DNA of 64,000 bases. It comes from Minisyncoccota bacterium (lineage in GTDB: Bacteria > Patescibacteriota > Minisyncoccia > Phycocordibacterales > UBA9973). A program made the translations under genes and the position numbers. The DNA is taken from NCBI GenBank assembly GCA_041650615.1, contig JBAZKU010000001.1:319277-383276 (forward strand), in the 5' to 3' direction. The stretch's first letter is position 1, and each line of letters starts with the position of its first letter. Positions 16,174 to 50,141 of the stretch are shown here, in pieces. The notes under the pieces were generated by a model, which searched no databases, had not been told where the DNA came from, and saw nothing but the letters and a program-made list of their open reading frames with translations.

Positions 16174-18411
16174 TTATTTGGCAATTGCGGCGGCTTCGTC
16201 AAGTTTTACTGAGAGAAGTTTTGAAGCACCGTCGTTGCCGATAGTGACACCATATAGGATACCGGCGCGGGACATTGTTTCCCTGTTATGGGTAACAACG
16301 ATGAGCTGTGAATGACGAGAAAGTTTTTCTAACATATCTCCGTATTTACGAGAATTAGCTTCATCAAGTGCTGCATCTGTCTCATCTAGAACCAAAAAGG
16401 GCGGAGGGTTTACTTGGGACATGGCAAAAAGAAGAGCAATAGAGGTAAGAGACCTTTCTCCTCCCGAGAGCGCTTTGAGTTCCTTTACTTTTTTATGCGG
16501 AAGCGAAACATTGATTTCAATACCCTGTTCAGGGACAATTTCCTCCTCATCTTCCATATTTTCTTCCAAATCTCCTTCTTCTCCTTCTTTTTTCTGTTTA
16601 TTTTCAGTTATAACAGAAAGATACCCTGTTCCCCCGCCGAACATTAATGAAAAGAATTTTCCAAATTCCACGTTTATTTTTTCAACGCCTTCTTTAAACT
16701 CCATATCTATTTTCTCTTTCAAGTCGGCTATAAGTTTGCGGAGTGATTCTATGCTTGTTACCAAATCTTCCATTTCTTTCGCTAGAAAATTATCCCTTTC
16801 TGAAACTTCTTCAAATTCTTTAATCAGCTCAGACCCCCCGCCTAGGCCGACATCTTCCAGTTTCATTTTGATGCGTTCAATTTTTTTTCTTAGTTCTTCT
16901 TGCGTATTTCTATCTATTGACCCGTTTATTTCGAAATTTTTATAAGATAAGATTTCACTGCCAATAAGCACTGAACCTTCTTTTATTTCATTTTCATACG
17001 CTTCCACCTCTTTTGACAAATTTTCTTCCTTTACGGCTATAAGCCCCAGAGAAGAGGATAATTCTTGTTGTCTGACTCTAAAATTAAATTTTTCCTTCTC
17101 CCTGGAGTGTAAAATTTCGTTTTCCTGATTTATTTCCTTTTTCAATATTTCTATTTTTTCAATAATTTTCTTTTCTTCGTTTTCAATATTCTGCATTTCA
17201 GCCAAAATCTTTTGTTTTTCTATCTTTAAATTCTCTAATTCTTCGTTTGTAGAAAGTTTTTCTGTTTTATAAGAATAATGATTAAATTTATTTAAAATAT
17301 CTTTTATTCTAAAAAGAATAATTTTAATTTCCGCTGCATTTTCTTCTATTATTGCTTCTTCTATCTCGTTATTAATCTCGTTAAAAATTTCTTTTATTTC
17401 TTCTGGATTTTGGATTGCAATTTCTGGTGCTTTCTTACTTCTGCGCTCTTCCATCTCTATCATTCCTTCTATTCTTCCTAATTTACGCTCTATCTCACTT
17501 CTAATTGCGCGAATTTCACCGATTTTTTTCTCAAATATTTTTAATTCTTTTTCTTTTTCACTTTCTTCCTTTTTATTTATTTCTTCGACGCTGGAAATCT
17601 TCTCTTTAATATTTTCCAATTCCGCAGAAATTTTATTTTTTTCCAAAAATAAGCTTGATTGTTCCTTTTCCAAATAAACACTTTCCTTCTTCAAATATTC
17701 CCTATAAAGAGATAATAAGGTCGCTTGCATTTCTTTTGCTTTTTCAAATTTATCTACCTGTTTCTTAAGGAAATTCAAATGGGGGGCATTTTCCCGGCGT
17801 AAAAGCGAGACTTCCTTCATATTATTGGTTGTTTTTTCCAATTTGCGTCCGGCTTCTTTAATTTTGTATTGATAAATTTTAAGGCCGAGAGCATCTTCCA
17901 CCATTTCCCTTCTGTCTTTTGGCGACGCATTCAAAATCCTATCCGCTTCGCCTTGTGAAATAATATGATGCCCAGAAGAACCGATATTAACCGACGATAA
18001 AAGATTGTTGATATCTTTTAATCTTACTTCCGAACCGTTTAAAATATATTTATTCAATCCGTCAGAATAAACTTCGCGGGAAATTGAGATGATATCGTAA
18101 TTCAGATTAATATCTTCGCCTCCCTCATTAGAGAGCTTGAAAACCTTATCAGAATTATCAAAATATATGGTAACGGTCGCGCGCGAGCTTTTTGGCAGAT
18201 TTTTGGATCCTTTAAAAATTAAATCGGAACCTAAGCTTCCCCGCATTGATTTCATTGATTGTTCGCCCAAAACAAAACGAAGCGCTTCTACCACATTTGA
18301 CTTACCAGACCCGTTGGGGCCCACAATAGAAACAATGGGATTTTGGAATTCCAAAATTGTTTTTTTATAAAAAGATTTAAAGCCGTTTATTTCAAGATTT
18401 TTAAGTCGCAT
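16174..18411 (-). CDS. smc: Compact SMC-family chromosome segregation ATPase (745 aa)
   Basis: N-terminus MRLKNLEINGFKSFYKKTILEFQNPIVSIVGPNGSGKSNVVEALRFVLGEQS (Walker A) and C-terminus LSGGERSLTSIALLFAMSQ...LVLDETDAALDEAN (signature + Walker B) with Glu/Lys-rich coiled coil between; no obvious canonical hinge domain. Confidence 0.85.
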   Translation of the reverse strand: MRLKNLEINGFKSFYKKTILEFQNPIVSIVGPNGSGKSNVVEALRFVLGEQSMKSMRGSLGSDLIFKGSKNLPKSSRATVTIYFDNSDKVFKLSNEGGEDINLNYDIISISREVYSDGLNKYILNGSEVRLKDINNLLSSVNIGSSGHHIISQGEADRILNASPKDRREMVEDALGLKIYQYKIKEAGRKLEKTTNNMKEVSLLRRENAPHLNFLKKQVDKFEKAKEMQATLLSLYREYLKKESVYLEKEQSSLFLEKNKISAELENIKEKISSVEEINKKEESEKEKELKIFEKKIGEIRAIRSEIERKLGRIEGMIEMEERRSKKAPEIAIQNPEEIKEIFNEINNEIEEAIIEENAAEIKIILFRIKDILNKFNHYSYKTEKLSTNEELENLKIEKQKILAEMQNIENEEKKIIEKIEILKKEINQENEILHSREKEKFNFRVRQQELSSSLGLIAVKEENLSKEVEAYENEIKEGSVLIGSEILSYKNFEINGSIDRNTQEELRKKIERIKMKLEDVGLGGGSELIKEFEEVSERDNFLAKEMEDLVTSIESLRKLIADLKEKIDMEFKEGVEKINVEFGKFFSLMFGGGTGYLSVITENKQKKEGEEGDLEENMEDEEEIVPEQGIEINVSLPHKKVKELKALSGGERSLTSIALLFAMSQVNPPPFLVLDETDAALDEANSRKYGDMLEKLSRHSQLIVVTHNRETMSRAGILYGVTIGNDGASKLLSVKLDEAAAIAK

Positions 18412-30296: not shown

Positions 30297-30695
30297 TTAT
30301 TCAGTAGTTTTTCCGTCAAATTCAGGACCGTTGGCTTCTGCTTCTGCTTTTGTGGCTCGCACTATGCCGTCTTTATGATGAGCCGGAGAATAGATTGTAT
30401 AAAGTTTTAAATCTTCCGAACCGGAGGTATTAATAATGTTGTGCTGTGCCCCAGCCGGAACTACAATAACTGACCCATCGCCAAGAATATATTCATTTCC
30501 ATCTATTAAGCATTTACCCTCTCCTTTTTCAAAACGGAAAAATTGGTCATTGTCTGTATGAATTTCAGTACCAATTTCTTCATTGGGCTTGAGACTCATC
30601 AGAACCAACTGGCTATGTTTCCCGGTGTATAAAACTTTGCGAAAATTTTTATTTTCCAAAGTTTCTTTTTCTATATTTGCATTAAATCCTTTCAT
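30297..30695 (-). CDS. Cupin-domain protein
   Basis: Conserved cupin beta-barrel motifs (G-x5-H-x-D ... G-x5-P-x-G-x2-H-x3-N: HTDNDQFFRFEKGEGKCLIDG...VVPAGAQHNIIN). Confidence 0.65.
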   Translation of the reverse strand: MKGFNANIEKETLENKNFRKVLYTGKHSQLVLMSLKPNEEIGTEIHTDNDQFFRFEKGEGKCLIDGNEYILGDGSVIVVPAGAQHNIINTSGSEDLKLYTIYSPAHHKDGIVRATKAEAEANGPEFDGKTTE

Positions 30696-30990
30696 CCTGC
30701 TTAGAAGCAGGTCGCGGTCTTAATTTTTTAATAAGATACGCTCCCACTATAAATTAATATTTATAATATATTATTCCCCGGTAAAAACTGTGACCGCGGC
30801 TTCTAACGGGATTTCATATTCAACTCTCGACTTGTTATAAGTTTAGCACAAATAATTTTAATCCCTTATCTAATCAAGTGCTTAAGAGGCAAAATAACAT
30901 TAAATAATGAGAATATTAACCTAATCAAGCAAAAAATGTTTAATAGGGTTGCCACTGTATCACGACACAGTAGCTGTTTTATTCTGAACA

Positions 30991-31033: not shown

Positions 31034-31429
31034 CTACTTTATTGCCACCTTACTCACCAGCAATTCCAAAAGATTTTTGACTTCTTCCTGCGCCTTGGTT
31101 TCAGTTTTGCTGTCAACAAATTTCTGCCACTGGTTAAAAATTTCTTCGTCGCCTAAATTCCTGACAGCGGTTTCCAGTTTTAATCTTGTGTCAAAACTAA
31201 CCTCGCTGTCCGCCTTCAAAACTTCGCCAATGAAAAGCTTGGTAAATTCCAAAACTTTTTCATTGGTTGTTTGAGTTTGTAAAGCGGCTTGGGTTTGGCG
31301 AAGTTCCCTGATAACTGAAAAATACTTGACGCCCAAAAAAATATTGGCGGCAAGCAGAATCAGAATAATGATTAAGGTTGTTTTTGGTTTGTTCACCCTG
31401 TTAGAAATTGAAGGTGTTTGTAATTCCAT
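31034..31429 (-). CDS. Small single-pass membrane protein, unknown function
   Basis: 131 aa, N-terminal TM (LIIILILLAANIFLGV) followed by predicted helical/charged region. Confidence 0.5.
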   Translation of the reverse strand: MELQTPSISNRVNKPKTTLIIILILLAANIFLGVKYFSVIRELRQTQAALQTQTTNEKVLEFTKLFIGEVLKADSEVSFDTRLKLETAVRNLGDEEIFNQWQKFVDSKTETKAQEEVKNLLELLVSKVAIK

Positions 31430-31475
31430 ATTGTTTGTTTATTTCCTTGTTAAAATTTGTAATTTCTAACGGGGT

Positions 31476-33557
31476 TCATAGATTTTTGGACCTCACTAAT
31501 CGCTCCCTAATTTTATCACGATAAAAGTTATAGAGCAATAAAATTATAATGACAGCTAATAAAATCGTTTTCCAATCAACGATGTTCAGCCACCAATACT
31601 TGGTCTTGAGTTCAATATTGACATGGACGCCGCTGCCTTCTTTGACTTGAAATGGCTTACCGTCATAAATGAGATACCCGGGGGTTTCTGCCTTAAGATA
31701 ATAGTAGCCCTCGGGAACCAAAAACGAATAAGTGCCCCTAACATCGGTGATTTGAGGATTCTCCTGTTGATACTCTTTGGCCGGCCACATTTCATATTGT
31801 TTGGTTTCGGGATTCAGCCAGTAGAGAGACACGATGGCACCAGGGATACGGGTTTCTTTGTCGCCGTTCCGCTCATAAATATACCCTTCGGGGTCAACCA
31901 CAGTGGTCAAGCGGATTTCTTTCATTCCGAGTTCTGGGTCGTCAAAATCCATAACCGTTATGATCTCGTACTCGCCGGCAACAACAGGCACATCGATTTC
32001 TGCCGTATAGATGCCATCACCGTCTGGATCGGTATATTCAAATTCCAGCAATACTAGTTTTTCTTCAACCCTAACGGGCTGATCCTGGGTCTTGGCAAAA
32101 GCGGGGTTGGCGAAGATCACGGACGCCAGTAAAGAATTCAACGGAACGTCCACAGAGGTCGCTTGGCTAGCTCTTGCCTTAAAAACCACATATCCCTTGA
32201 CGCTCTTAACGGGTTTATCAGGCTTCATTACTAACTGCAGTGGTTTGCCGGAAACAGTGGTGATCTTCTGTTGAGGTTTCCCTTTATCAGAAATGGAAAG
32301 ATCAATGTTAAAATCAATCAGTTCGCCGCCGGTTTTGGCAAAGACAATTTCTGTCGGTAATTGCTGTTTAATCGCCGGCGATAATTCAACCACTGGAACG
32401 CCTTGGGGAAGAGCAAACTTACCGGGTTCAACTTTAGCTATCGGCAAGCCGGCGCGTTCTGTCAGCCCGGGCAAAGTCAATTTGACCGTTTTCAGCTTAG
32501 CAACATCGGTAATCTTGCTGATGCCGACTTCTTCAAGAATTTTCTCAAGTTCTGGAAACTTTTGAGCAAGATTCCTGATCTCCTTGGGCAAGGGCGCCAA
32601 AACGAATTCTCTGATTGGTTCGCTTGGTAAGAGTTGCCATTTACCCTGAAAAGCTAAAGGTGTTTCTTTAGACACTAATTCTTCAATTGGAATTTCTGGC
32701 GGTTTGGTTTCTTCCTCTAATTTTGGCTTAAATATTTCTGGGATTTTTTTGATTATTCCCGGTATCTGCTCAATAATTAATTTCTCTAATTTTGTTTTTT
32801 CCTTTATTCCCAATTTCTCATTAATAAAATCAAAATCTTCCTGACTAAATAGAGAAGGATATTTTTCCATTATTTGAAGGGCATATTGATAATTACCCAT
32901 CTCAATAAGATTTGAAACTTGACTTTGAATTCCGCCGCCTCCGCTGCCTCCGCCGGAAGAACAACTTTGACTTAAGATCGGACTACCGCCGCTACAGCCG
33001 GAAGGAGATGCAGAAATAATAGCCCTAGTTTGCTGTCCTCCCGAACAGCTACTCCAATCGGAATACGTCCAAGAAGTGCAAACTCTCGCGCTTTGCGGTT
33101 GCCAATCGGTTTTAACTTTGTAATCCCCGTCAAAAATTATCCAGCCGATATTTTCACCCAAAGCCGAGCCGGTAAATTCGCCAGAAGAATTGATAATTAC
33201 TCCTCCATTGGTCGGATTAAATTTTATCCAACCAGTATTTTCTGACCAAGTATAGCCAGACAAATTTCCTTCGCCATCATTTGTAATGTCGCCCAGATAT
33301 ACCCAGCCAATATTTTCACTCAGGGCGTAACCAGACAATCCAGAATCCGTAACATGAACATCACAATTATCACAGCCAAAATTAAACCAGCCGATATTTT
33401 CTCCCCAAGCGTATTTGTAGCCTTCATTATTTGGGTCAATGGTGCCATCGGTAGACGAGGCCAAGGTGGACTTATTAAAAAATGCAAAAAATCCACTTAT
33501 GAGAAGCATTAAAAATAAAACATAAATTAAATTTTTGGTCGGTATCTTCTTATCCAT
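31476..33557 (-). CDS. Large cell-surface protein with N-terminal signal/TM, four GENIGW-type repeats, Cys/Gly-rich linker and C-terminal TM anchor
   Basis: Repeats YAWGENIGWFNFG / YALSENIGWVYLG / YTWSENTGWIKFN / SALGENIGWIIFDG; CSGGQQ...CSGGSP...CSSGGGSGGGG; C-terminal hydrophobic WKTILLAVIIILLLYNFY. Confidence 0.6.
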   Translation of the reverse strand: MDKKIPTKNLIYVLFLMLLISGFFAFFNKSTLASSTDGTIDPNNEGYKYAWGENIGWFNFGCDNCDVHVTDSGLSGYALSENIGWVYLGDITNDGEGNLSGYTWSENTGWIKFNPTNGGVIINSSGEFTGSALGENIGWIIFDGDYKVKTDWQPQSARVCTSWTYSDWSSCSGGQQTRAIISASPSGCSGGSPILSQSCSSGGGSGGGGIQSQVSNLIEMGNYQYALQIMEKYPSLFSQEDFDFINEKLGIKEKTKLEKLIIEQIPGIIKKIPEIFKPKLEEETKPPEIPIEELVSKETPLAFQGKWQLLPSEPIREFVLAPLPKEIRNLAQKFPELEKILEEVGISKITDVAKLKTVKLTLPGLTERAGLPIAKVEPGKFALPQGVPVVELSPAIKQQLPTEIVFAKTGGELIDFNIDLSISDKGKPQQKITTVSGKPLQLVMKPDKPVKSVKGYVVFKARASQATSVDVPLNSLLASVIFANPAFAKTQDQPVRVEEKLVLLEFEYTDPDGDGIYTAEIDVPVVAGEYEIITVMDFDDPELGMKEIRLTTVVDPEGYIYERNGDKETRIPGAIVSLYWLNPETKQYEMWPAKEYQQENPQITDVRGTYSFLVPEGYYYLKAETPGYLIYDGKPFQVKEGSGVHVNIELKTKYWWLNIVDWKTILLAVIIILLLYNFYRDKIRERLVRSKNL

Positions 33558-36328: not shown

Positions 36329-38950
<2,622 letters not shown>

Positions 38951-41656: not shown

Positions 41657-42160
41657 TTATGGACAAGCATAGCTAGAACCCGCCAAAACAGCAGTAACCT
41701 GTTTTGAAGCCCCAGTGGAATCAACGCACCAAGCGACAATAGAACCAGAAGCAGAAGCCTTGAGCGGAACAAAGGCTGCCCAAGCACTTGCGTTATCGTG
41801 ACATTGCGCAGTATTCCATGTGCTTGCTGTAGCATCTGCGTATGTTGTAACGCTTCCGTCATAAGTATTTTCAGCGGCATTTACCATAGTGCCAATAACA
41901 TTAGAACCTGAAGTAGCACAAACTCCTTCATATGTTCCAGTAGCACTATTGAGGTAAAAAACCTCTGCTTGTGCGCGGGCATTGGCTAAATTGGATTTTA
42001 TATTCGCATCAGAACCTTTTGACCTGGCACTGTTGAGTGAAGCTAAAACCACACTTGCCAAAATACCGATTATGGCAACTACGACCAAAAGTTCAATTAA
42101 TGTAAAACCGGACACTTTACTTGAAAGCGTGTGGTTAAAACCTTTTTTAAATAAATTCAT
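41657..42160 (-). CDS. Type IV pilin paralog 2 with 11-codon palindromic insert splitting the GFTLIE motif (likely start MNLFKKGF...; track ORF extends to 42211)
   Basis: MNLFKKGF-NHTLSSKVSGF-TLIELLVVVAIIGILASVVLASLNSAR...; first 8 and following 30+ residues identical to neighbouring pilin 42283..42771 except for the insert. Confidence 0.8.
   Translation of the reverse strand: MNLFKKGFNHTLSSKVSGFTLIELLVVVAIIGILASVVLASLNSARSKGSDANIKSNLANARAQAEVFYLNSATGTYEGVCATSGSNVIGTMVNAAENTYDGSVTTYADATASTWNTAQCHDNASAWAAFVPLKASASGSIVAWCVDSTGASKQVTAVLAGSSYACP
42103..42142. mobile_element. 33-bp in-frame insert in pilin paralog 2, flanked by 7-bp direct repeat TAAAACC (mRNA sense GGTTTTA)
   Basis: Plus strand TAAAACC-GGACACTTTACTTGAAAGCGTGTGGT-TAAAACC; insert has imperfect inverted ends ACACGCTTT/AAAGTGT; the uninterrupted paralog has a single GGTTTTACA at the same place. 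Confidence 0.65.
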
Positions 42161-42282: not shown

Positions 42283-42771
42283 TTATGGACATGCATAAAC
42301 TCCAGATCCGAGAGATGTTGATTCTTTAGAGGCACCAGTAGAATCCACACACCAGCCCGAACTCGTAGTAGAACCTTTTAATGATACTATGGCTGCCCAA
42401 GCAGTCCCGCTGTCATGACACACTGCAGCAGTTGTAGCCCCTGCAGCGGGGGAAGCGTTATAAACCCAAATGGTTGAGGCAGGAGTTACAGTTGGAGTAC
42501 TAGCAGAATTAAGCTTTTGGGTAGCATTTAAGATTAAAGGATAAACACCGCCTGTAGTAGCAGACTGACATACGTTAGTATATGTCTGTCCTGAGTCATA
42601 GAACAACTCAGCCTGTGCACGAGCATTAGCCATTGCAGATTTTATAGCTGCATCTGTGCCTTTGGTTCTAGCACTGTTCAAGCTAGCTAACACAACGGAA
42701 GCCAAAATACCGATTATGGCAACTACGACCAAAAGTTCAATTAATGTAAAACCTTTTTTAAATAAATTCAT
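42283..42771 (-). CDS. Type IV major pilin (PilA-like), canonical MNLFKKGFTLIELLVVVAIIGILA
   Basis: Class III signal peptide with G-F-T-L-I-E, Cys pair near C-terminus; own promoter region and terminator (monocistronic). Confidence 0.85.
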   Translation of the reverse strand: MNLFKKGFTLIELLVVVAIIGILASVVLASLNSARTKGTDAAIKSAMANARAQAELFYDSGQTYTNVCQSATTGGVYPLILNATQKLNSASTPTVTPASTIWVYNASPAAGATTAAVCHDSGTAWAAIVSLKGSTTSSGWCVDSTGASKESTSLGSGVYACP

Positions 42772-42969: not shown

Positions 42970-44178
42970 CTAACTTATTCCCCCTGCAATATTATAAATC
43001 GGCAACAAAATAGAAACTAAGAGAATCCCTACACCTAAACCTAAAACCACAATCATAACCGGTTCAATCAACCCAACCAAGGTGTCAACCGCATCATCAA
43101 CTTCTCGTTTATAAAAATCCGCCAGAGTCTTTAAAATCTCCCCCAGTGAACCTGTCTCTTCCCCAATTTTAATCATTTGTACCATAATGCCCGGAACTTG
43201 CGCTTCATGTCTCCCAAAAGCGATTGAAAAAGGCATACCTGACTTTACCCCTTCTGCCACATCCTTTAAAATTTCCATATAAACTCTACTACCAACAACT
43301 TCGGAAGTAATGTCTATTGACCGAACAATCGGAACACCTGAAGTAAGCATTGTATCCATATTATCCGCTATTCTGGAAAGGTAAAGTTTCCTATAAAGAT
43401 TACCCACTGCCGGTATAGAGAGACGCATTTTATCAAGATATATCTTGCCTTTCTCTGTGGAGGATAATCTCCACAACCATAAACCCAAAAGTACCAAGAA
43501 AATAATAACCAGGAAACCATAATTTACGAAAAAATCCGACATTCCGATAATTATCTGGGTGTAGATTGGCGCTTCTTGCCCTGAATCAAGAATAATAGCC
43601 GAAAGTTTCGGAATGACGACAACAAACATAAGTCCCATAACTACAAAAAATGTAACAATAACAAATATTGGATAAATGAGAGCATTCCTTGTTTTGGAAG
43701 TAAGCGCATATTGGCGGTTTAAATAATTTGCCAAATGGTCGAAGGTTTCATTTAACTTACCGGTTTCTTCTCCCACCTTAACCATATTAACGTAAAAATT
43801 TGAAAAAATATCCGGGTGTTTTGCCAAAGCGCCTGAAATGGAAATTCCGGCTTGGAGATCATCGCCTATTTCTGTAAGTTTTCTTGACAAGATTTTATTT
43901 TCTGTATTAGCGGCAAGCATAGTAAAGGCTTTAAGGGCGGAAACTTGCGCTTCAAATAAAGTTGAAATCTGACGGGAAAGAATAACAATTTCTTTCATCG
44001 GCACTTTTTGAGTAAAAGAAAAAGAAAAAAAAGATTTCTTTTTCCCTTCATCTTGAATGGAGATAATAATAAGCCCCCTCCTTTGAAGCCCGCTTATGGC
44101 TATGTCGCGATTTGGCGCGTCAATTTCTCCTTCTTTACTTATCCCCTTATCATCTACTGCTTTGTATTTGAATAACAT
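42970..44178 (-). CDS. pilC: Type IV pilus assembly platform protein PilC (GspF family)
   Basis: 402 aa, duplicated GspF domains with 3 TM helices. Confidence 0.88.
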   Translation of the reverse strand: MLFKYKAVDDKGISKEGEIDAPNRDIAISGLQRRGLIIISIQDEGKKKSFFSFSFTQKVPMKEIVILSRQISTLFEAQVSALKAFTMLAANTENKILSRKLTEIGDDLQAGISISGALAKHPDIFSNFYVNMVKVGEETGKLNETFDHLANYLNRQYALTSKTRNALIYPIFVIVTFFVVMGLMFVVVIPKLSAIILDSGQEAPIYTQIIIGMSDFFVNYGFLVIIFLVLLGLWLWRLSSTEKGKIYLDKMRLSIPAVGNLYRKLYLSRIADNMDTMLTSGVPIVRSIDITSEVVGSRVYMEILKDVAEGVKSGMPFSIAFGRHEAQVPGIMVQMIKIGEETGSLGEILKTLADFYKREVDDAVDTLVGLIEPVMIVVLGLGVGILLVSILLPIYNIAGGIS

Positions 44179-44185
44179 AAAAAGA

Positions 44186-45244
44186 TTATATCATGCGCTC
44201 AAGACCTTTTGGATTGAGTGAAAATTGATAAGCGCTTTCTATGGTAATTTCTCCGGCGCGAACAAGTTCTGTAAGCGAATGGTTTAAATCTATCATTCCT
44301 GATTCTGCTCCTGTTTCTATTACAACATCAATTTCTTGTGTTCGCTTTTCACGAATCAAGTTGGAAACAGCATTATTATTTAATAATAATTCACAAGCAG
44401 GAATAAGCCCACCGGTAATTCTAGGTATAAGCCTTTGGGAAAAAATACCAAGCAAGCTGGAGGCAAGTTGTAGACGAATTTGATCCTGCTGACTGCCTGG
44501 GAAAGAATCAATAATCCTATCTATTGTTTGCGAAGCATTGTTGGTGTGTAAAGTTGAAAGTACAAGATGTCCGGTTTCGGCGGCGGTTACAGCCGTTGAA
44601 ATCGTTTCAGTGGTACGCATCTCGCCCACCATTATTACATTCACATCTTCTCTAAAAACTGACCTAAGCGCAGTATGAAAATCTTTGGTGTCAATACCGA
44701 CCTCACGCTGGTCAATTATTGATTTATTGGGAGTATAGATGTATTCAATCGGATCTTCAATCGTTATAATGTGGCGCGCTTGTTCATTGTTGATTAAGTT
44801 CACCATAGCTGATAACGTAGTTGACTTACCTTGCCCGACTGGGCCAACTACCAGAAAAAATCCCTGTTTTTTGCGAGCCAATTCCGCAATAATCGGAGGC
44901 AGATGCAGCTCTGAAAGAGATTTGACTTTAGGTACCAATCGAAGGGCAACACTGATTAGACCTTTTTGGAAAAAAGCATTACCTCTAAGGCGCACCTCTC
45001 CTCGAAAATCATAAGAAAAGTCTATTTCTTTGTCTTCTGTAAATTTGCTTAATTTCGTCTTATCCAAAATTTCAGTTAAAATACCAAGTACATCTTCTTT
45101 GTTTAAAACCGAATGCTTTAAGAGAAAAATGAGTTCTCCTGCTACTCGAATAGCCGGAACTTTTCCAACCCCTAAATGCAAATCCGAACCGCCTTCGCGG
45201 ATAACGGTTAAAATAAGTTCTTCAAATTCTTTTTTGTAATCCAT
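44186..45244 (-). CDS. pilT: Twitching-motility retraction ATPase PilT
   Basis: Walker A GPVGQGKSTT, Asp/His boxes, no N-terminal GspE-N domain, 352 aa. Confidence 0.88.
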   Translation of the reverse strand: MDYKKEFEELILTVIREGGSDLHLGVGKVPAIRVAGELIFLLKHSVLNKEDVLGILTEILDKTKLSKFTEDKEIDFSYDFRGEVRLRGNAFFQKGLISVALRLVPKVKSLSELHLPPIIAELARKKQGFFLVVGPVGQGKSTTLSAMVNLINNEQARHIITIEDPIEYIYTPNKSIIDQREVGIDTKDFHTALRSVFREDVNVIMVGEMRTTETISTAVTAAETGHLVLSTLHTNNASQTIDRIIDSFPGSQQDQIRLQLASSLLGIFSQRLIPRITGGLIPACELLLNNNAVSNLIREKRTQEIDVVIETGAESGMIDLNHSLTELVRAGEITIESAYQFSLNPKGLERMI

Positions 45245-45326
45245 CCTGTTATAAATTTACATTAAATTAATAATATTCAATCTATTATACCCCGTTTTTG
45301 ATAATTTCGTTATTTCTAAAAGGATT
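45243..45326 (-). promoter_or_regulatory. Conserved ~85-nt hairpin element immediately 5' of the pilT start codon (copy 1)
   Basis: Arms ATCCTGTTATAAAT (45243-56) / ATTTCTAAAAGGAT (45313-26) with internal CCCCGTTTTTG; strongly similar to element at 48907..48985; 3' arm (mRNA sense) overlaps the AUG. Confidence 0.5.
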
Positions 45327-45426
45327 CATGGTAATTCCCTGTCTACCTCTTAATTATATTACACAACAACCTTTAATAATAGTACTTTGTGGGCAACTTA
45401 TTCAACTTCGGGGTTTAAATAATAAT

Positions 45427-47178
45427 TTACTCATTCTCACTAATGAAATTGAAAACTTCTTTATATGGAATAATGCCATTTATGGCTTTTAACATAGCAT
45501 CTTCTCTCATCAAAAGCATTCCATCTTCACGAGCCACTTTATAAATTTCAGAATCAACTGGATTTTTAAGAATCACTTTCTGCATTTCTTTACCTATTTT
45601 AAACATTTCAAAAATAGCAATACGGCCACGAGTGCCCGATGGGCATTCGGAAGATGGCACTGTATCATACATTTGATCTTTGATCTCAATTTCCTTTTTG
45701 AATTCGTCCGGCAAATCTTTTAGTTCATCTTCGATTTGCAATTTAATACTCGGATCTATGGGGACAAGTCTTCTGGAGGCCGGACAGGTCATTCTGGCCA
45801 AGCGTTGAGCAACAGACAAAATAAGAGTCGGCGCTATAAGATATGGATCAACTCCCATGTCAATTAAGCGAGGAATCGCTCCGATAGCGCTATTTGTGTG
45901 CAGTGTCGATAAAACAAGGTGCCCGGTCAGCGCCGCTTGAATAGCAAGCTGGGCTGTCTCTTTGTCGCGTATCTCTCCAACCATTATCACATCCGGATCC
46001 TGGCGAAGGATAGAGCGCAATCCGGAAGCAAAAGTATATCCAATCTCGGGCATCATTTGAGACTGATTAATGTCGGGCATATGATATTCTACCGGATCTT
46101 CTAGGGAAACGATATTGCTTTTTTCTTTATCAAGTTCATTCATCATTGAATATAGAGTCGTAGATTTTCCAGACCCCGTCGGACCGGTAATCAAAATAAG
46201 TCCATAGGGTTTATCTATTGCTTCTCTAAGCATTTTAAGATTTCTTTTAGATAATCCTAATTGATCCAATGGCTTAACTCCTTTTTCCGAGTCCAAAATA
46301 CGTATCTCCACTTTTTCGCCATAATAAGCAGGCATGGTAGAAACACGAAAATCAATTTTATGTCCATCAAGACTGGTACTGAAAGATCCGTCTTGCGGTT
46401 TTCTTTTTTCATCCAAGCGCAACTTAGCTAAAATTTTTATGCGTGCTACTATCCCGTTGTAAACATTGGACGGTAAGATGATAGCTGTGTAAAGAATACC
46501 ATCCACTCGAAAACGTACTTTAACTTTTTCTCCCGTATTTTCTATATGTATATCTGAAGCATTGCCTTCTATGGCATTACGCAATATAACAGCAACAATT
46601 TTTATAACCGGGGCATCTTCTACTATCTTTGATTCTTCGTTTGCCTTTACATTTTTAATTTCATTATTTAAAGTATTTGCTTCATTTAAACTTTTCGCAT
46701 CTAAGGTTTCATCTTGTTTTAGTTCACCAAGCGCTTCTTCCACCTGAACAGATATCCCTTTATATGTTTCCATAATACTCTTGTAGTCACTGTTTGAAAT
46801 AAGAAAAATTTTAAAAGGAATACCCAGCTTAGCTGAAATAAATTGCAAGGCATCAAGCGCTTGCGTATTTTCTCCATCCAAAATACCAACTTCCAATACT
46901 CCTTCTTTGAATTGAATCGGAGCAAAATGGTAATGTGCGGCCGCATCTTCCGGAATATATTTCAAGGCATCAAAAGATGATTCTTCTGTGCTTATTTTTT
47001 TTATTGGTATTTGCAAATACTCCCCTTTTATCGCAAGTATTTTATCTTCTGGAATACCAAATTCAATAAGAGCTTCATCAATATCTCCGGCATGCTTTTC
47101 CTGGGCAAGATTTTTAATTTCACTTATTTGGCCCTTACTGATTGCGCCCTTTTTAACTAATTCTTCTAAAAAACTCAT
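45427..47178 (-). CDS. pilB: Type IV pilus assembly ATPase PilB (GspE family)
   Basis: N-terminal GspE-N domain, Walker A GPTGSGKSTT, Walker B/His box, 583 aa. Confidence 0.9.
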   Translation of the reverse strand: MSFLEELVKKGAISKGQISEIKNLAQEKHAGDIDEALIEFGIPEDKILAIKGEYLQIPIKKISTEESSFDALKYIPEDAAAHYHFAPIQFKEGVLEVGILDGENTQALDALQFISAKLGIPFKIFLISNSDYKSIMETYKGISVQVEEALGELKQDETLDAKSLNEANTLNNEIKNVKANEESKIVEDAPVIKIVAVILRNAIEGNASDIHIENTGEKVKVRFRVDGILYTAIILPSNVYNGIVARIKILAKLRLDEKRKPQDGSFSTSLDGHKIDFRVSTMPAYYGEKVEIRILDSEKGVKPLDQLGLSKRNLKMLREAIDKPYGLILITGPTGSGKSTTLYSMMNELDKEKSNIVSLEDPVEYHMPDINQSQMMPEIGYTFASGLRSILRQDPDVIMVGEIRDKETAQLAIQAALTGHLVLSTLHTNSAIGAIPRLIDMGVDPYLIAPTLILSVAQRLARMTCPASRRLVPIDPSIKLQIEDELKDLPDEFKKEIEIKDQMYDTVPSSECPSGTRGRIAIFEMFKIGKEMQKVILKNPVDSEIYKVAREDGMLLMREDAMLKAINGIIPYKEVFNFISENE

Positions 47179-47190
47179 AATTAATTTAGT

Positions 47191-47664
47191 TTAAGGAGTT
47201 GAAGGAGTTGAAGGAGTTGAAGGAGTTGAAGGAGTTGAAGGAGTTGAAGGAGTTGAAGGAGTTGAAGGATCGGCCGGTATTGGAAACTCTGAAAGATCTG
47301 CTGAAGAACTTGTAGTCGTAGACGGCGTAAGCACATCAGAACCAATCGGGGCAAAAGGATTTAATCTTCCTTTATCTACTGGAAGAGTAAGTAAAATACT
47401 GGAATCATGTAGATTGATAAAAGATTCATCAGAAAAAATAACATCGTTTAACCCTATATTGTTAACGCTCAATAGCACAGAAAGAAAATTCTGAGCAATT
47501 AAAGAATTTTGGTCTAAAGTTTCTGTACTTGTCGATGTTATATCTCCGGAGGAGGAAATCAAATTCTGTTCTTCTGGTGACTTTTTAATGAAGAAAATAT
47601 AAATCAGAACCAAGATGACCGCAATCGTTGCAAAAATTATTGTGTTTTTTATTTTTGGGGTCAT
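47191..47664 (-). CDS. Membrane-anchored pilus-cluster protein (PilP-like position) ending in (STP)8 repeat
   Basis: N-terminal TM; C-terminus PSTPSTPSTPSTPSTPSTPSTP directly before stop. Confidence 0.5.
   Translation of the reverse strand: MTPKIKNTIIFATIAVILVLIYIFFIKKSPEEQNLISSSGDITSTSTETLDQNSLIAQNFLSVLLSVNNIGLNDVIFSDESFINLHDSSILLTLPVDKGRLNPFAPIGSDVLTPSTTTSSSADLSEFPIPADPSTPSTPSTPSTPSTPSTPSTPSTP
47195..47266. repeat. Perfect tandem repeat, 8 x 9 bp (GGAGTTGAA), encoding (Ser-Thr-Pro)n on the minus strand
   Basis: Eight identical units at the extreme 3' end of CDS 47191..47664. Confidence 0.9.
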
Positions 47665-47665
47665 T

Positions 47666-48262
47666 TTAATTTTTAAGCCAATAAGTTTTAATTGCTAAAT
47701 CGTATTTGTAAGCCTCAGGTAAAGATGGGTTAAGTCCCATACTTGCATTTGAAGAAAATTGGATTGAAGATATATCCACAATTCTTAAATTATTTTCCAA
47801 ATCTTTCAAGAAGTTAATAAAATTATTATAAGTTCCCTGAGTAGAAAATTCCAAATTCCAAATTCCATAATTTTTATTTAAGGAAACTGCTCCTCCGTTT
47901 TGCGCAACTCCTGCCATTTCTGGTGTTGTATCATTGTTACTTGTCGTATCATATTTTATATCTTTTAATGTCATCCCGTAAGGCAACGCTATTTTTTCTA
48001 TTTCAAGAATTAAACGAATATTGTCAACGTTATCGGGTAAAAGTTTCTGGAGCTTAGATAAATCTTCCGGGTCAAATGAATTATATTTTTGGGTTAATCT
48101 GTCGCGTTGCGCTTCAAGAGCCTTAGAATTATCAAGCGCTTCATCGTAAGATGCTATTTGTTCCCTTTCTAAAGAAATACTATTATAAAGCGGACTGGTA
48201 AGTATAAAAAATCCCGCTATGGCAATTCCTATTAAAATGATTGGTAAAATATATTTAAACAT
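47666..48262 (-). CDS. pilO: Type IV pilus assembly protein PilO-like
   Basis: N-terminal TM then coiled-coil and C-terminal domain; position between pilN and pilB side of cluster. Confidence 0.55.
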   Translation of the reverse strand: MFKYILPIILIGIAIAGFFILTSPLYNSISLEREQIASYDEALDNSKALEAQRDRLTQKYNSFDPEDLSKLQKLLPDNVDNIRLILEIEKIALPYGMTLKDIKYDTTSNNDTTPEMAGVAQNGGAVSLNKNYGIWNLEFSTQGTYNNFINFLKDLENNLRIVDISSIQFSSNASMGLNPSLPEAYKYDLAIKTYWLKN

Positions 48263-48264
48263 AA

Positions 48265-48906
48265 TTAATTTAGCGCACTTCCGCTGTCAAGAAGTGTGCC
48301 GGAAAAATCTTCATTTGTGGCATCAAGCACTTTCTTGTAATTAACAAAATTTTGATCGACCGAAAAATTCAGATCAAAGGTGACATTACCTTTTTCATCA
48401 AGCGATAAATTTGAAAAAACAGGATCAATTATATTTTTATTTGTCGCAAAAAGATCTGCCTGAAGCGCAACAGATAAATAGCCTACAGCAATTCCGCTCA
48501 TATCCACTGCTATTTTTTGACTTTTACTATCATCAAAACTATAACTGAACTTGGTATAACTGACGGTTTTCATTGTAATTGCCTGAAGCGCGCTAAAAAT
48601 GGGAGAAACAGAAATATGGTTATTCAAAATTTGGTTTGCTGCATTTAAACGTTTATCTAAAACTTGGAGCTGAACTATTTTTGAAAGTTCAAAACGGCCT
48701 TCTGCTAAATTAAGATCATTTTCCATCTGTGTAATATTTTTCTTTAAAATTCCGTCATAAAAATACAGGGCGCCTGTCGCAATAATTACAGTAAAAAAAA
48801 TGAAAATAGAAACAACGGTAAAAAGACTGGTGGACTGCGATCCTGCCGCTCGCTCGGCTATTATCGGTTTTTTGGGTATAAAAGATGTTTGAAAATTTTG
48901 CTCCAT
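48265..48906 (-). CDS. pilN: Type IV pilus assembly protein PilN-like
   Basis: Short cytoplasmic N-terminus, single TM (LFTVVSIFIFFTVIIATGALYF), periplasmic coiled coil; immediately downstream of pilM. Confidence 0.6.
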   Translation of the reverse strand: MEQNFQTSFIPKKPIIAERAAGSQSTSLFTVVSIFIFFTVIIATGALYFYDGILKKNITQMENDLNLAEGRFELSKIVQLQVLDKRLNAANQILNNHISVSPIFSALQAITMKTVSYTKFSYSFDDSKSQKIAVDMSGIAVGYLSVALQADLFATNKNIIDPVFSNLSLDEKGNVTFDLNFSVDQNFVNYKKVLDATNEDFSGTLLDSGSALN

Positions 48907-48985
48907 CCCGTTAGAAATTTATTCTTAATTAATAATACTTCATTTCAGTATCCCGTTTTTCAATGTTTGCGTTATTTCTAACGGG
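48907..48985 (-). promoter_or_regulatory. Conserved hairpin element immediately 5' of the pilN start codon (copy 2)
   Basis: Perfect 12-bp inverted repeat CCCGTTAGAAAT (48907-18) / ATTTCTAACGGG (48974-85) with internal CCCGTTTTTC; mRNA-sense 3' arm ends exactly at the AUG. Confidence 0.55.
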
Positions 48986-49013
48986 ATCCATTTTGTTTAT
49001 TATATTATCTCAC

Positions 49014-50141
49014 TTATTGCAATTTTCGCAATGCTAAACCTAAAGCAACTGCAAATTCCGGGCCTGTGGTTTCAAGAACTTTCCCTAAAAACTCCGGCGC
49101 GCCAACTTTGGAAAAAGGGTGTCCTATTTCTATTTCTGCCTGAAAATTACTGGATGCCACTTCTTTTAATCCTTTTAGGAGAGATCCGCCGCCTGTAAAT
49201 ACCACCTTGCTAATGGTCTTGTTGTATTTCTTTTCATATCCTAATAATACATTATTCGTTTCTGAAAAGATATAATCAATGTGAACTTTAATGGTATCAG
49301 CCAGGTTTTTTTCAATAGGATTTTCAAAAAGACCGAATTCTTTTTTCATTTCTTCGGCTTTTGGAAACGGAATCCCAAGAGTTTGAGAAATAGAAGAAGA
49401 TATGTCCGCTCCTCCGCGGTTTATAGTGTGGTGGCTTTTTACCATACCAAATTCCACTAGAGAGAGCTTAGTACTTGACGCACCGAAATCTATCAAGAGC
49501 ACTAAGGAAAGTTCGTGTTCAAAATTTGCCCGAATAGAAGAAAAAATTTCAATCTCAAAAAATCCGGCTTCCAGGCTGCAATCTGAAACGATAGAACGAT
49601 ATTTTGAAACTGCATCATTTTGAATTGCTACTACAAGCACCTCCGTTTTTTCCGGCAACATAGCGGGTAAATCTGGATTATTCGCTTCTTCAAATGAAGA
49701 TTCCTTTTTAGGCAGGATAAAATAGTCAAGGGAAACTTCCGTGATGGGTAATGGAATATATTTGCGAGCTTCTGTCGGAATGATTGATGGCACTTCGCTT
49801 TCTTTAACTTGAGATGGAAGTAAAATGGTAAAAATCAGGCTTGATTGAACTGGGATAGAAAAGGCGCAAGAAACTGTCGTTACGCCGGATTGTTTTAAGA
49901 CTTCTTTTAAAGCTTCTACTACTTTTTCAACCGGCAGATTAGTGGTGCGCCCTATTTCCATGTCGGCATAAGGACCAAGAGCGATGGCCCCATAGGTTTC
50001 AAGAACCGCTCTTCCTCCTCTTTTTTTTATTTCAACTACTTTTATAGCAGAAGAACCGATGTCAATACCAACAGCGCTATCACTCTCCCCACCCCTAAAA
50101 AGATTTAAACCTGAAAGAAAGTTTTTAATTGGATTATCCAT
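49014..50141 (-). CDS. pilM: Type IV pilus assembly ATPase-like protein PilM (actin/FtsA fold)
   Basis: GIDIGSSAIKVVEI phosphate-1 motif, ...DFGASSTK..., 375 aa. Confidence 0.85.
   Translation of the reverse strand: MDNPIKNFLSGLNLFRGGESDSAVGIDIGSSAIKVVEIKKRGGRAVLETYGAIALGPYADMEIGRTTNLPVEKVVEALKEVLKQSGVTTVSCAFSIPVQSSLIFTILLPSQVKESEVPSIIPTEARKYIPLPITEVSLDYFILPKKESSFEEANNPDLPAMLPEKTEVLVVAIQNDAVSKYRSIVSDCSLEAGFFEIEIFSSIRANFEHELSLVLLIDFGASSTKLSLVEFGMVKSHHTINRGGADISSSISQTLGIPFPKAEEMKKEFGLFENPIEKNLADTIKVHIDYIFSETNNVLLGYEKKYNKTISKVVFTGGGSLLKGLKEVASSNFQAEIEIGHPFSKVGAPEFLGKVLETTGPEFAVALGLALRKLQ

Follow-up and report, generated by a model that had tools for sequence, protein, structure and literature searches.

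The pil Operon and Its Intergenic Hairpins

We analysed a hairpin-forming DNA element that abuts the start codons of two pilus genes in a Minisyncoccota bacterium (Patescibacteriota; Minisyncoccia; Phycocordibacterales; UBA9973). The window, meaning the whole stretch of DNA analysed, comprises 64,000 nucleotides (nt) of contig JBAZKU010000001.1 (assembly GCA_041650615.1, forward-strand positions 319,277 to 383,276); coordinates are those of the window unless they follow the L number of another locus. The genes of the pil region, labelled by Pfam, lie on its minus strand and are as follows.

49014-50141, minus strand, pilM
48265-48906, minus strand, pilN
47666-48262, minus strand, pilO
47191-47664, minus strand, unnamed open reading frame (ORF)
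45427-47178, minus strand, pilB
44186-45244, minus strand, pilT
42970-44178, minus strand, pilC

The operon has two sizeable gaps, upstream of pilT and upstream of pilN, and each holds one copy of a repeat of about 90 nt. Repeat family D6 pairs 45240-45329 with 48902-48991 at 71% identity over 90 nt, with no gaps. The two copies and their flanks, including target-site duplications (TSDs) and an upstream open reading frame (uORF), are listed here.

48906-48986, minus strand, element copy 2 (pilN), 81 bp: T-CCCGTTAGAAAT, 55-nt loop, ATTTCTAACGGG-A
48987-48990, minus strand, left TSD TGGA of the pilN copy, from comparison of filled and empty sites
48902-48905, minus strand, right TSD TGGA of the pilN copy, which is bases 2-5 of the pilN coding sequence
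48992-49031, minus strand, promoter-like sequence at the end of pilM, TTGCGA-16-GATAAT, a consensus match only
45244-45324, minus strand, element copy 1 (pilT), 81 bp, decayed: T-CCTTTTAGAAAT ... ATTTATAACAGG-A
45325-45329, minus strand, left flank ATGAA of the pilT copy, made up of the uORF ATG (45327-45329) and the left repeat TGAA
45240-45243, minus strand, right TSD TGGA of the pilT copy, inside pilT codons 1-2 and one base off the left TGAA

An earlier reading of the DNA letters, hereafter the sequence-only reading, had held that one element with arms of 12-14 bp occupies both gaps and that its 3′ arm ends at the downstream AUG. Both observations stand. The stem of the pilN copy forms 14 of 14 bp between ATCCCGTTAGAAAT (48974-48987) and ATTTCTAACGGGAT (48905-48918), the pilT copy forms 12 of its 14 pairs with two mismatches, and in each case the last paired base of the element is the A of the gene's ATG (A48906 in pilN, which starts at 48906, and A45244 in pilT, which starts at 45244). 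As mRNA, the pilN copy reads AUG GAU CCC GUU AGA AAU, 55 nt, AUUUCUAACGGG AUG GAG. A48991 precedes the left TGGA, which creates a duplicated ATG (48989-48991) that opens a uORF of 20 codons. The minimum free energy of the pilN copy is -21.6 kcal/mol (z = -4.1), and none of 200 shuffled sequences was as stable. The pilT copy folds no better than shuffled sequence (z = -0.1), which marks it as decayed. The pilN copy is young, with perfect arms, and the pilT copy is older and decaying. Because both are identical in the independent assemblies L001 (ENA) and L002 (JGI), and the Logan contig L003, which spans the pilT copy alone, is also identical there, they are not assembly artefacts.

By consensus match, a TATAAT (48999-49004) lies 7 nt upstream of the duplicated pilN ATG, an arrangement (TATAAT-N7-ATG) that would be of the leaderless type. 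The promoter-like stretch at the pilM end predates the insertion, as the empty sites of relatives have it too.

A mismatch-tolerant search for the arms found two further minus-strand copies, each ending on a start codon, which brings the total in the window to four (three canonical and one variant, 79-117 bp).

31396-31474, minus strand, element copy 3, 79 bp: C-CCCGTTAGAAAT ... ATTTCTAACAGG-G
31475-31478 and 31392-31395, minus strand, TSD TGAA of copy 3
30695-30811, minus strand, variant copy 4, 117 bp with a long loop: T-CCCGTTAGAAGC(CGCGGTC) ... (GACCGCG)ACCTGCTTCTAAGCAGG-A
30812-30816 and 30690-30694, minus strand, TSD TGAAA (5 bp) of copy 4

Copy 3 sits at an ATGA stop/start overlap. The upstream gene still terminates at TGA 31476-31478, and the start of the membrane-protein gene downstream is now GTG 31394-31396 or else an ATG lying in frame within the loop (31427-31429). 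The hairpin of copy 4 has a folding energy of -36.6 kcal/mol (z = -3.3). This copy terminates at the ATG of an ORF of 132 aa (30297-30695), which we take from its sequence to be cupin-like. A covariance-model search, which the sequence-only reading had suggested, was carried out with a model built from family members. In the window it recovered the three canonical copies on the minus strand at 54-70 bits (pilN copy 69.9, copy 3 65.8, pilT copy 54.2; E 3.5e-13 to 1.3e-9), scored them at 19-40 bits on the plus strand, and found nothing else credible; weak matches at 16929-16998 and 38176-38242 were examined and dismissed. Single arms occur in the window at chance frequency (15 matches versus 11.4 expected), and it is the inverted pairs that are informative.

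Filled and Empty Sites in Related Operons

The orthologous junctions were examined in operons of relatives with PilT 87-93% identical, and the occupancy of each site is polymorphic.

pilN start site: filled in the window and L252; empty in L123/L124, L125, L127 and L251
pilT start site: filled in the window (decayed), L122 and L252; empty in L123, L125, L127, L251 and L253
pilB start site: filled in L252; empty in the window and the others examined

L252 carries copies at pilN, pilB and pilT. The intact pilT copies of L122 and L252 lie at the exact window site, with an interior close to that of the window's decayed copy, and L127 has a related element at the pilC start with co-varied arms (CCCGTACTAAA / TTTAGTACTGGG). 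The pilM-pilN gap in the empty relatives is 18-33 nt. Filled and empty junctions compare as follows.

pilN: empty in L125, ...GTGAGATAATATAATAAACAAAATGGAACAAG (AAACAAAATGGAACAAG); filled in the window, ...GTGAGATAATATAATAAACAAAATGGA (AAACAAAATGGA)[TCCCG...CGGGA]TGGAGCAAAAT (TGGAGC)
pilT: empty in L123, AAAATTATGGATTATAAAAAAG; filled in L122, AAAATTATGGA[TCCCG...CGGGA]TGGATTATAAAAAAG
pilB: empty in the window, AATTATGAGTTTTTT (AATTATGAGTTTT); filled in L252, AATTATGAG[TCCCG...CGGGA]TGAGTTTTTT, with the duplication TGAG

In all three comparisons, the empty site holds a single copy of the 4-nt repeat. The filled sites therefore arose by insertion with target-site duplication, and, because the orthologous operons of relatives contain empty sites, the element does not belong to the conserved parts of the operon. 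Of the two observations that the sequence-only reading had named as counting against it, absence from the orthologous pil operons was found, and the other, a lack of covariation, was not: the stem does covary.

These comparisons bear directly on control of pilT/pilN stoichiometry, one of the roles offered by the sequence-only reading. A dedicated cis-regulatory RNA, in which uORF and hairpin form a translational operator that sets pilN and pilT expression, would draw on the architecture of the junctions: the stem extends into the start codon by one base, and that of the pilN copy is strong (-21.6 kcal/mol), the uORF spans the 5′ arm so that its translation would open the stem, and an internal AACGGGRT box could pair alternatively with the 5′ arm. 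However, relatives with PilT 87-92% identical lack the element at the same junctions, others have it at pilB (L252) or, as a variant, at pilC (L127), and it is also found in front of unrelated genes, both in the window and in other phyla. Conservation of the uORF peptide is limited to its overlap with the arm, and the decay of the pilT copy speaks against selection on that hairpin. On the mRNA strand, stem mismatches are not enriched in G·U (6, versus 9 for A·C) and give no support for RNA-level selection. The element matched no Rfam 15 family at gathering score, the window and 18 loci from other phyla giving only tRNAs and signal recognition particle RNA; a permissive Rfam scan of the pilN copy gave chance-level matches only (E > 4). 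We therefore regard a purpose-built operator as very unlikely indeed, and the proposed stoichiometric control was not borne out. An RNA thermometer was also considered and rejected on stem stability.

A Hairpin Family Shared by Many Phyla

Copies beyond the window were collected in two scans, and all counts of genome and metagenome copies given here are among the matches listed by them. The genome scan took one genome per species with the pattern CCCGTTAGAAAN{36,66}TTTCTAACNGG (long-loop copies), and the metagenome scan covered short loops of 0-30 nt; as a pair, the element ends are YCCCGTTAGAAA ... TTTCTAACGGGR. At least 118 loci were obtained from genomes, where we estimate that fewer than 10 would be expected by chance, and at least 120 loci with 129 copies from metagenomes. 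By record title, the genome loci fall in many Patescibacteria lineages and in Planctomycetota (Pirellulales, Phycisphaerae, anammox), with others in Deltaproteobacteria, Omnitrophota, Nitrospirae, WOR-3 and KSB1. Several element-bearing contigs occur per metagenome-assembled genome, and three matches lie in viral contigs. Neither the arm sequences nor a matching description was found in the literature searched, and the family is apparently undescribed, widespread and MITE-like, that is, similar to MITEs (miniature inverted-repeat transposable elements).

The termini are inverted repeats of 12-14 bp, Y-CCCGTTAGAAA(N) ... (N)TTTCTAACGGG-R. They enclose loops that are hypervariable in length and sequence (2-66 nt in the sampled copies, with interiors of up to >80 nt that are unrelated to one another) and that have no coding capacity beyond incidental uORFs. 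The ends covary. The terminal pair, which lies outside the search pattern, is C:G in 67 and T:A in 37 of 114 genome copies and is complementary in 104 of them; in alignment A1 (37 sequences) it is U:A in 25 and C:G in 12, with none unpaired, and the loop-proximal pair takes five pair types, again with none unpaired.

The flanks were outside the search pattern as well, yet they are ordered, with the layout [x2x3x4x5] Y-CCCG ... CGGG-R [x2x3x4x5]. A perfect 4-nt direct repeat flanks 66 of 114 long-loop copies, where shuffling predicts 7.1, and 78 of 129 short-loop copies, where 12.2 are expected. The commonest are TGAA/TTCA, TAAA/TTTA, TGGA/TCCA and TTGA/TCAA. Duplication is usually of 4 bp, with 3 bp in L004 and L081 and 5 bp in window copy 4 and L051.

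The variable loops, the covarying ends and the flanking 4-bp direct repeats are together characteristic of a non-autonomous transposon. It is small and non-coding, with inverted-repeat ends, TSDs, multiple copies and insertion polymorphism among relatives, which are the hallmarks of a MITE. Every MITE feature that could be tested is present, save a parent insertion sequence (IS), of which none was found in the fetched loci. We conclude that the pil hairpins are most probably copies of a non-autonomous, MITE-like mobile DNA element, and, because mobile copies occur in many phyla and land on start codons, that they are not a regulator built for the pilus operon. Among the roles suggested by the sequence-only reading, a MITE that brings its own start context is the one that fits the empty sites, the TSDs and the rebuilt ATG.

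The duplications also weigh on other routes of mobility. A palindrome of the repetitive extragenic palindromic type (REP, or REPIN for the hairpin-forming doublets), moved by a single-copy HUH transposase (RAYT) instead of a DDE cut-and-paste enzyme, would account for the abundance of short-loop hairpins (2-9 nt), for the arrays and doublets in L012, L072, L115 and L174, and for the lack of an IS-like partner nearby. However, flanking duplications are not expected for HUH single-strand transposition (IS200/IS605, REP biology), and the 3-5 bp duplications are clear. REP sequences are lineage-specific, whereas these arms are common to several phyla, and no RAYT gene was seen, although no search was aimed at one; we consider this route very unlikely. 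The arms also contain integron-like cores (GTTAGAA resembles GTTRRRY, and TTCTAAC resembles RYYYAAC), which might suggest an attC-type site or another target of site-specific recombination. Their order is reversed on either strand, with GTT... first and ...AAC last, where attC is 5′-RYYYAAC ... GTTRRRY-3′; the duplications vary in sequence, as transposition marks do and a fixed crossover core would not; and the place of the elements is at gene starts, whereas attC sites lie downstream of cassette ORFs. The likelihood of such a site is practically negligible.

Two subfamilies were seen. One has a GC-rich interior, GCCCGC-[GCGC..GCGC]-[GCCC..GGGC]-GCGGGC, in which, by eye, two nested hairpins are kept through compensatory changes and would form a three-way junction inside the conserved arms. 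TTGA(C), similar to a -35 box, flanks several of its copies. The other, frequent in metagenome contigs, has a uniform short loop, gtaaaC-CCCGTTAGAAAT-TCCAGCGGGGCATT-ATTTCTAACGGG-Gtaaa; oriented by its internal box, it nearly always has the TAAA target in one orientation, which suggests recent activity.

GC-rich subfamily: L019 972-1037, L029 1796-1863, L096 7009-7074, L035 3732-3794, L040 1150-1215, L082 1617-1682
Uniform short-loop subfamily: L129, L150 (two copies), L153, L157, L170, L176, L196, L207, L222
Uniform short-loop subfamily, reversed: L184, L215, L217, L233, L234

Start Codons, Orientation and the uORF

Start codons are a favoured destination. Of 113 long-loop copies, 43 (about 38%) end exactly at the start of an ORF of at least 60 codons; for short-loop copies the figure is 11 of 129 only, and these mostly have TAAA targets. 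An internal CGGGR box, a partial extra right end, gives the element a direction: among 40 unambiguous start-codon copies, it is in the sense direction in 19 and antisense in none. The bias extends to copies away from starts. When these are oriented by the box, TAAA outnumbers TTTA by 13 to 1, and the base before the left repeat is a purine in 41 of 42. The target is asymmetric (R-T-R-R-A), and the orientation of the element is fixed relative to it, which by itself accounts for some of the start-codon bias. These insertions seem to be under selection as well, as T:A ends, which restore ATG, are over-represented at start codons (27:15 versus 9:52 at other positions; Fisher p = 3e-7).

The sequence-only reading had described a short conserved uORF. 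It reads as given (MDPVRNNANIEKRDTEMKYY and MNPFRNNEIIKNGV in the window), but its conservation does not reach beyond the arm: among 63 start-codon copies with a duplicated ATG, the peptide (MNPVRN...) is conserved over the arm only. The uORF is the duplicated ATG read in frame into the left arm and is an artefact of insertion. Its outcomes are as follows.

Stop in the loop, 12-72 nt upstream of the gene start: 34 of 63 copies
Stop at the TAA in the right repeat, 4 nt before the gene start: 15 of 63 copies
Stop at a TGA overlapping the gene start (ATGA): 4 of 63 copies
No stop, in frame as an N-terminal extension (...ISNGV/M...): 10 of 63 copies

The in-frame copies add about 21-27 residues of the form MNPVRN...ISNG(V/M), and in the window copies the uORF stop falls within the loop, at distances of 22, 40 and 53 nt upstream of the gene start.

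A further suggestion, an internal promoter, did not hold up: -10-like boxes in 37 loops are unbiased (22 sense versus 17 antisense), and promoter and terminator scans found nothing inside the window copies. A -10-like hexamer is found outside the element, 5-9 nt upstream of the duplicated ATG, in 14 of 34 start-codon copies versus 31 of 190 control ORF starts. These consensus matches suggest that leaderless-type genes are frequent hosts.

The excess of -10-like hexamers, which includes the TATAAT-N7-ATG at pilN, could also mean that the mobile element has been co-opted as a portable 5′ leader, a function added to its MITE-like nature. RNase III might cut at the base of the stem to leave a near-leaderless mRNA, by analogy with Correia elements, which are cut by this enzyme at their inverted repeats (reviewed in PMC10969869), and the RNase processing site suggested by the sequence-only reading might be of this kind; a 5′-terminal hairpin might stabilise the transcript; or a leaderless uORF might gate translation of the gene. 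The enrichment of A-ended copies at starts (p = 3e-7), the fixed orientation (19:0) and the Shine-Dalgarno-like sequence directly before the right (3′) arm, seen in 10 copies versus 2 in the mirrored position, are all consistent with co-option. However, close relatives carry the element in a patchy pattern, decay is under way in the pilT copy, and the biases could also arise from target preference together with selection against gene-silencing insertions. Co-option is, in our judgement, improbable.

A class of start-codon copies without a duplicated ATG was also observed. Its left flank is a conserved AC(C/T/G)TGT, in which TGT could pair with the AUG of the gene through G·U wobbles, and TATAAA or TATAAT lies 5-14 nt upstream in most copies (L022, L032, L041, L127). 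These copies may form a subfamily whose left end is longer, or one in which transcripts start.

AC(C/T/G)TGT class: L022 687, L023 22, L032 (minus strand), L041 2509, L122 13094 (minus strand), pilT-pilC gap of L127

Proposed Mechanism of Insertion

Our studies allow us to propose how a MITE-like element comes to occupy a start codon. A DDE-type transposase would make a staggered cut, usually of 4 bp and sometimes of 3 or 5, at a preferred target that is rich in purines and asymmetric (R|T-R-R-A, as in A|TGAA, A|TGGA or G|TAAA), and the element would insert in a fixed orientation relative to it. Because A-TG-RA is a start codon followed by a codon for Lys, Asn, Asp or Glu, many insertions would fall on start codons. 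The left copy of the duplication keeps the old ATG, giving a uORF M-(N/D)-P-V-R-N through the left repeat, and the gene regains an ATG or GTG from the last base of the element (A or G) together with the TG of the right copy. The stem is probably unwound by ribosomes initiating at the duplicated ATG. Termination of the uORF in the loop, at the right-repeat TAA 4 nt before the start, or at the overlapping ATGA would then be followed by reinitiation; alternatively, straight readthrough would yield a short N-terminal extension. The element would be mainly selfish DNA, with selection retaining those insertions that keep the downstream gene expressed.

Several observations weigh against a MITE-like origin. 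Neither an autonomous partner nor a transposase with the same ends was found in 1.79 Mb of fetched loci or in plasmid and phage records, where BLAST of a synthetic short hairpin returned chance-level matches only. Solo arms number only 15 and are mostly chance matches with one mismatch. Near-identical ends of 11-13 bp across distant phyla, combined with unrelated interiors, are unusual for a MITE family, and arm conservation in our sample is partly built in, as both scans demanded perfect 11-nt arms. A selected function, and not mere tolerance, could lie behind the strict orientation and the excess of ends that restore ATG, and the nested hairpins of the GC-rich subfamily hint at a structural role beyond the termini.

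Candidates for a mobilising partner were pursued in the same loci. Long arm pairs in L085 and L105, tried as an autonomous element, enclose ordinary sigma-factor genes, and matching flanks around long pairs follow from how common the TAAA/TTTA target is, so that none of the long pairs makes a convincing composite element. All-against-all clustering of 1,307 ORFs from the 118 listed genome loci found no recurrent neighbour; the largest cluster spans 5 loci.

A bolder reading, which we hold to be unlikely though worth stating, is that of a cross-phylum mobile hairpin family that targets first codons, often of leaderless genes, and whose ends have evolved to keep the gene expressed at any loop length. 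The right repeat would supply the A or G of the start codon, a TAA 4 nt upstream in frame 1, an ATGA overlap in frame 2 and an open fusion in frame 3. If true, the element would be a portable leader of uORF and start-occluding stem that rewires the initiation of many genes in streamlined genomes such as those of the candidate phyla radiation (CPR), perhaps processed or regulated at the RNA level.

Comparison with Known Systems

Bacterial MITEs such as the Correia/NEMIS elements of Neisseria, ERIC, RUP and MITEAba12 are likewise small and non-coding, with hairpin-forming terminal inverted repeats, TSDs, many copies per genome, presence/absence polymorphism and co-transcription with neighbouring genes. 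Correia elements have a TA duplication, 26-bp repeats and a conserved interior, whereas the present element has an R|TRRA target and a duplication of 4 bp (3 or 5 in some copies). Unlike the described families, its ends of 11-13 bp are near-identical across phyla around unrelated interiors, and about 38% of the long-loop copies lie exactly on start codons in one orientation.

Rickettsia palindromic elements (RPEs) are mobile palindromes that are readable in frame and add residues to host proteins (PMC10969869). The likeness extends only to the in-frame subset described here (10 of the 63 copies on start codons); RPEs measure about 150 bp, lie inside ORFs and are confined to Rickettsia, whereas the present element lies at first codons, mostly with a separate uORF, in many phyla. 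With REP/REPIN sequences it shares short extragenic palindromes, doublets that form long hairpins and the lack of a transposase inside the element, but the TSDs and the identity of arms across phyla belong to the present element.

By analogy with uORF-coupled or hairpin-gated translation (the ermC leader peptide; termination-reinitiation at ATGA), translation of the short uORF would melt the start-occluding stem, and the uORF stop is 4 nt from the gene start or overlaps it in 19 of 63 copies. The likeness is one of mechanism only, as the present uORF is a side effect of insertion. No conserved stalling peptide extends past the arm, and nothing points to a ligand or an antibiotic as the signal. 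Translational bypass elements (T4 gene 60; the mitochondrial 'byps' of Magnusiomyces) place a hairpin insert between matching codons, as does ATG GA(T) ... ATG GA(G) around this hairpin. The element is not a member of that group: bypass of the gene 60 type was rejected because the take-off codon is not followed by a stop; the matching codon upstream serves for initiation and is not internal, and most uORFs simply terminate.

Other Features of the pil Region

Most relatives have a response-regulator gene (131-133 aa) between pilB and pilT that is absent from the window and L125. In a comparison of window 45330-45426 with L122, L123, L127, L251, L252 and L253, the gap upstream of copy 1 still resembles the relatives' intergenic region between pilB and the response-regulator gene (GTTGYCCACA...ATTAAAGGT...TAATATAATTA). 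We speculate that the gene was lost by recombination between two element copies; a deletion of this kind would fit the unequal flanks of copy 1 (TGAA versus TGGA).

The pil junctions of relatives also hold other, unrelated small palindromic inserts. That of L123 pairs three GGCATTA with four CTAGAGC in heptamer runs, and those of L252 are GC-rich CACCCCG... hairpins; two extra genes (MtN3_slv-like and DUF559) lie between pilB and the response-regulator gene of L252 (5129-5879), beside a GC-rich hairpin insert. Gene boundaries in Paceibacteria-like genomes appear to collect several families of hairpin inserts.

Unrelated palindromic inserts: L122 2133-2242; L123 7560-7646; L251 7560-7641; L252 5050-5128 and 7563-7640; L253 2518-2616

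Two further repeats were noted in the window. At 47188-47269, a 9-nt tandem repeat, AGTTGAAGG, in 9.1 copies within the minus-strand ORF 47191-47664 gives the small protein encoded between pilO and pilB a (PST)n tail at its C terminus. The allele of the near-identical contig L001 has 142 aa and that of the window 157 aa; by these allele lengths, compared unaligned, strains probably differ in repeat number. A 155-nt direct repeat, 77% identical (41955-42109 and 42599-42753), lies in ORFs directly downstream of pilC. The L001 counterparts of these positions are called as N_methyl (pilin-like) genes, and the ORFs are probably paralogous pilin genes. Relatives have one to four pilin-like genes (four in L125).

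Implications

For the pilus operon, the outcome is that there is no conserved riboregulator and that the intergenic hairpins are recent insertions, which is ordinary for pilus biology and moderately interesting for mobile elements and for the annotation of uncultivated phyla. The element is apparently an unreported repeat family in Patescibacteria, Planctomycetota and other uncultivated phyla. It affects annotation by creating spurious small ORFs (MNPVRN..., ...ISNGV, ...FLTG) and by changing annotated starts from ATG to GTG, with N-terminal extensions possible, and it may drive deletions. Its ends give concrete transposon termini for locating the mobilising enzyme, and its one-way start-codon habit is a natural experiment in how far a stable stem over the initiation codon is tolerated on mRNAs that are leaderless or have a weak Shine-Dalgarno sequence.

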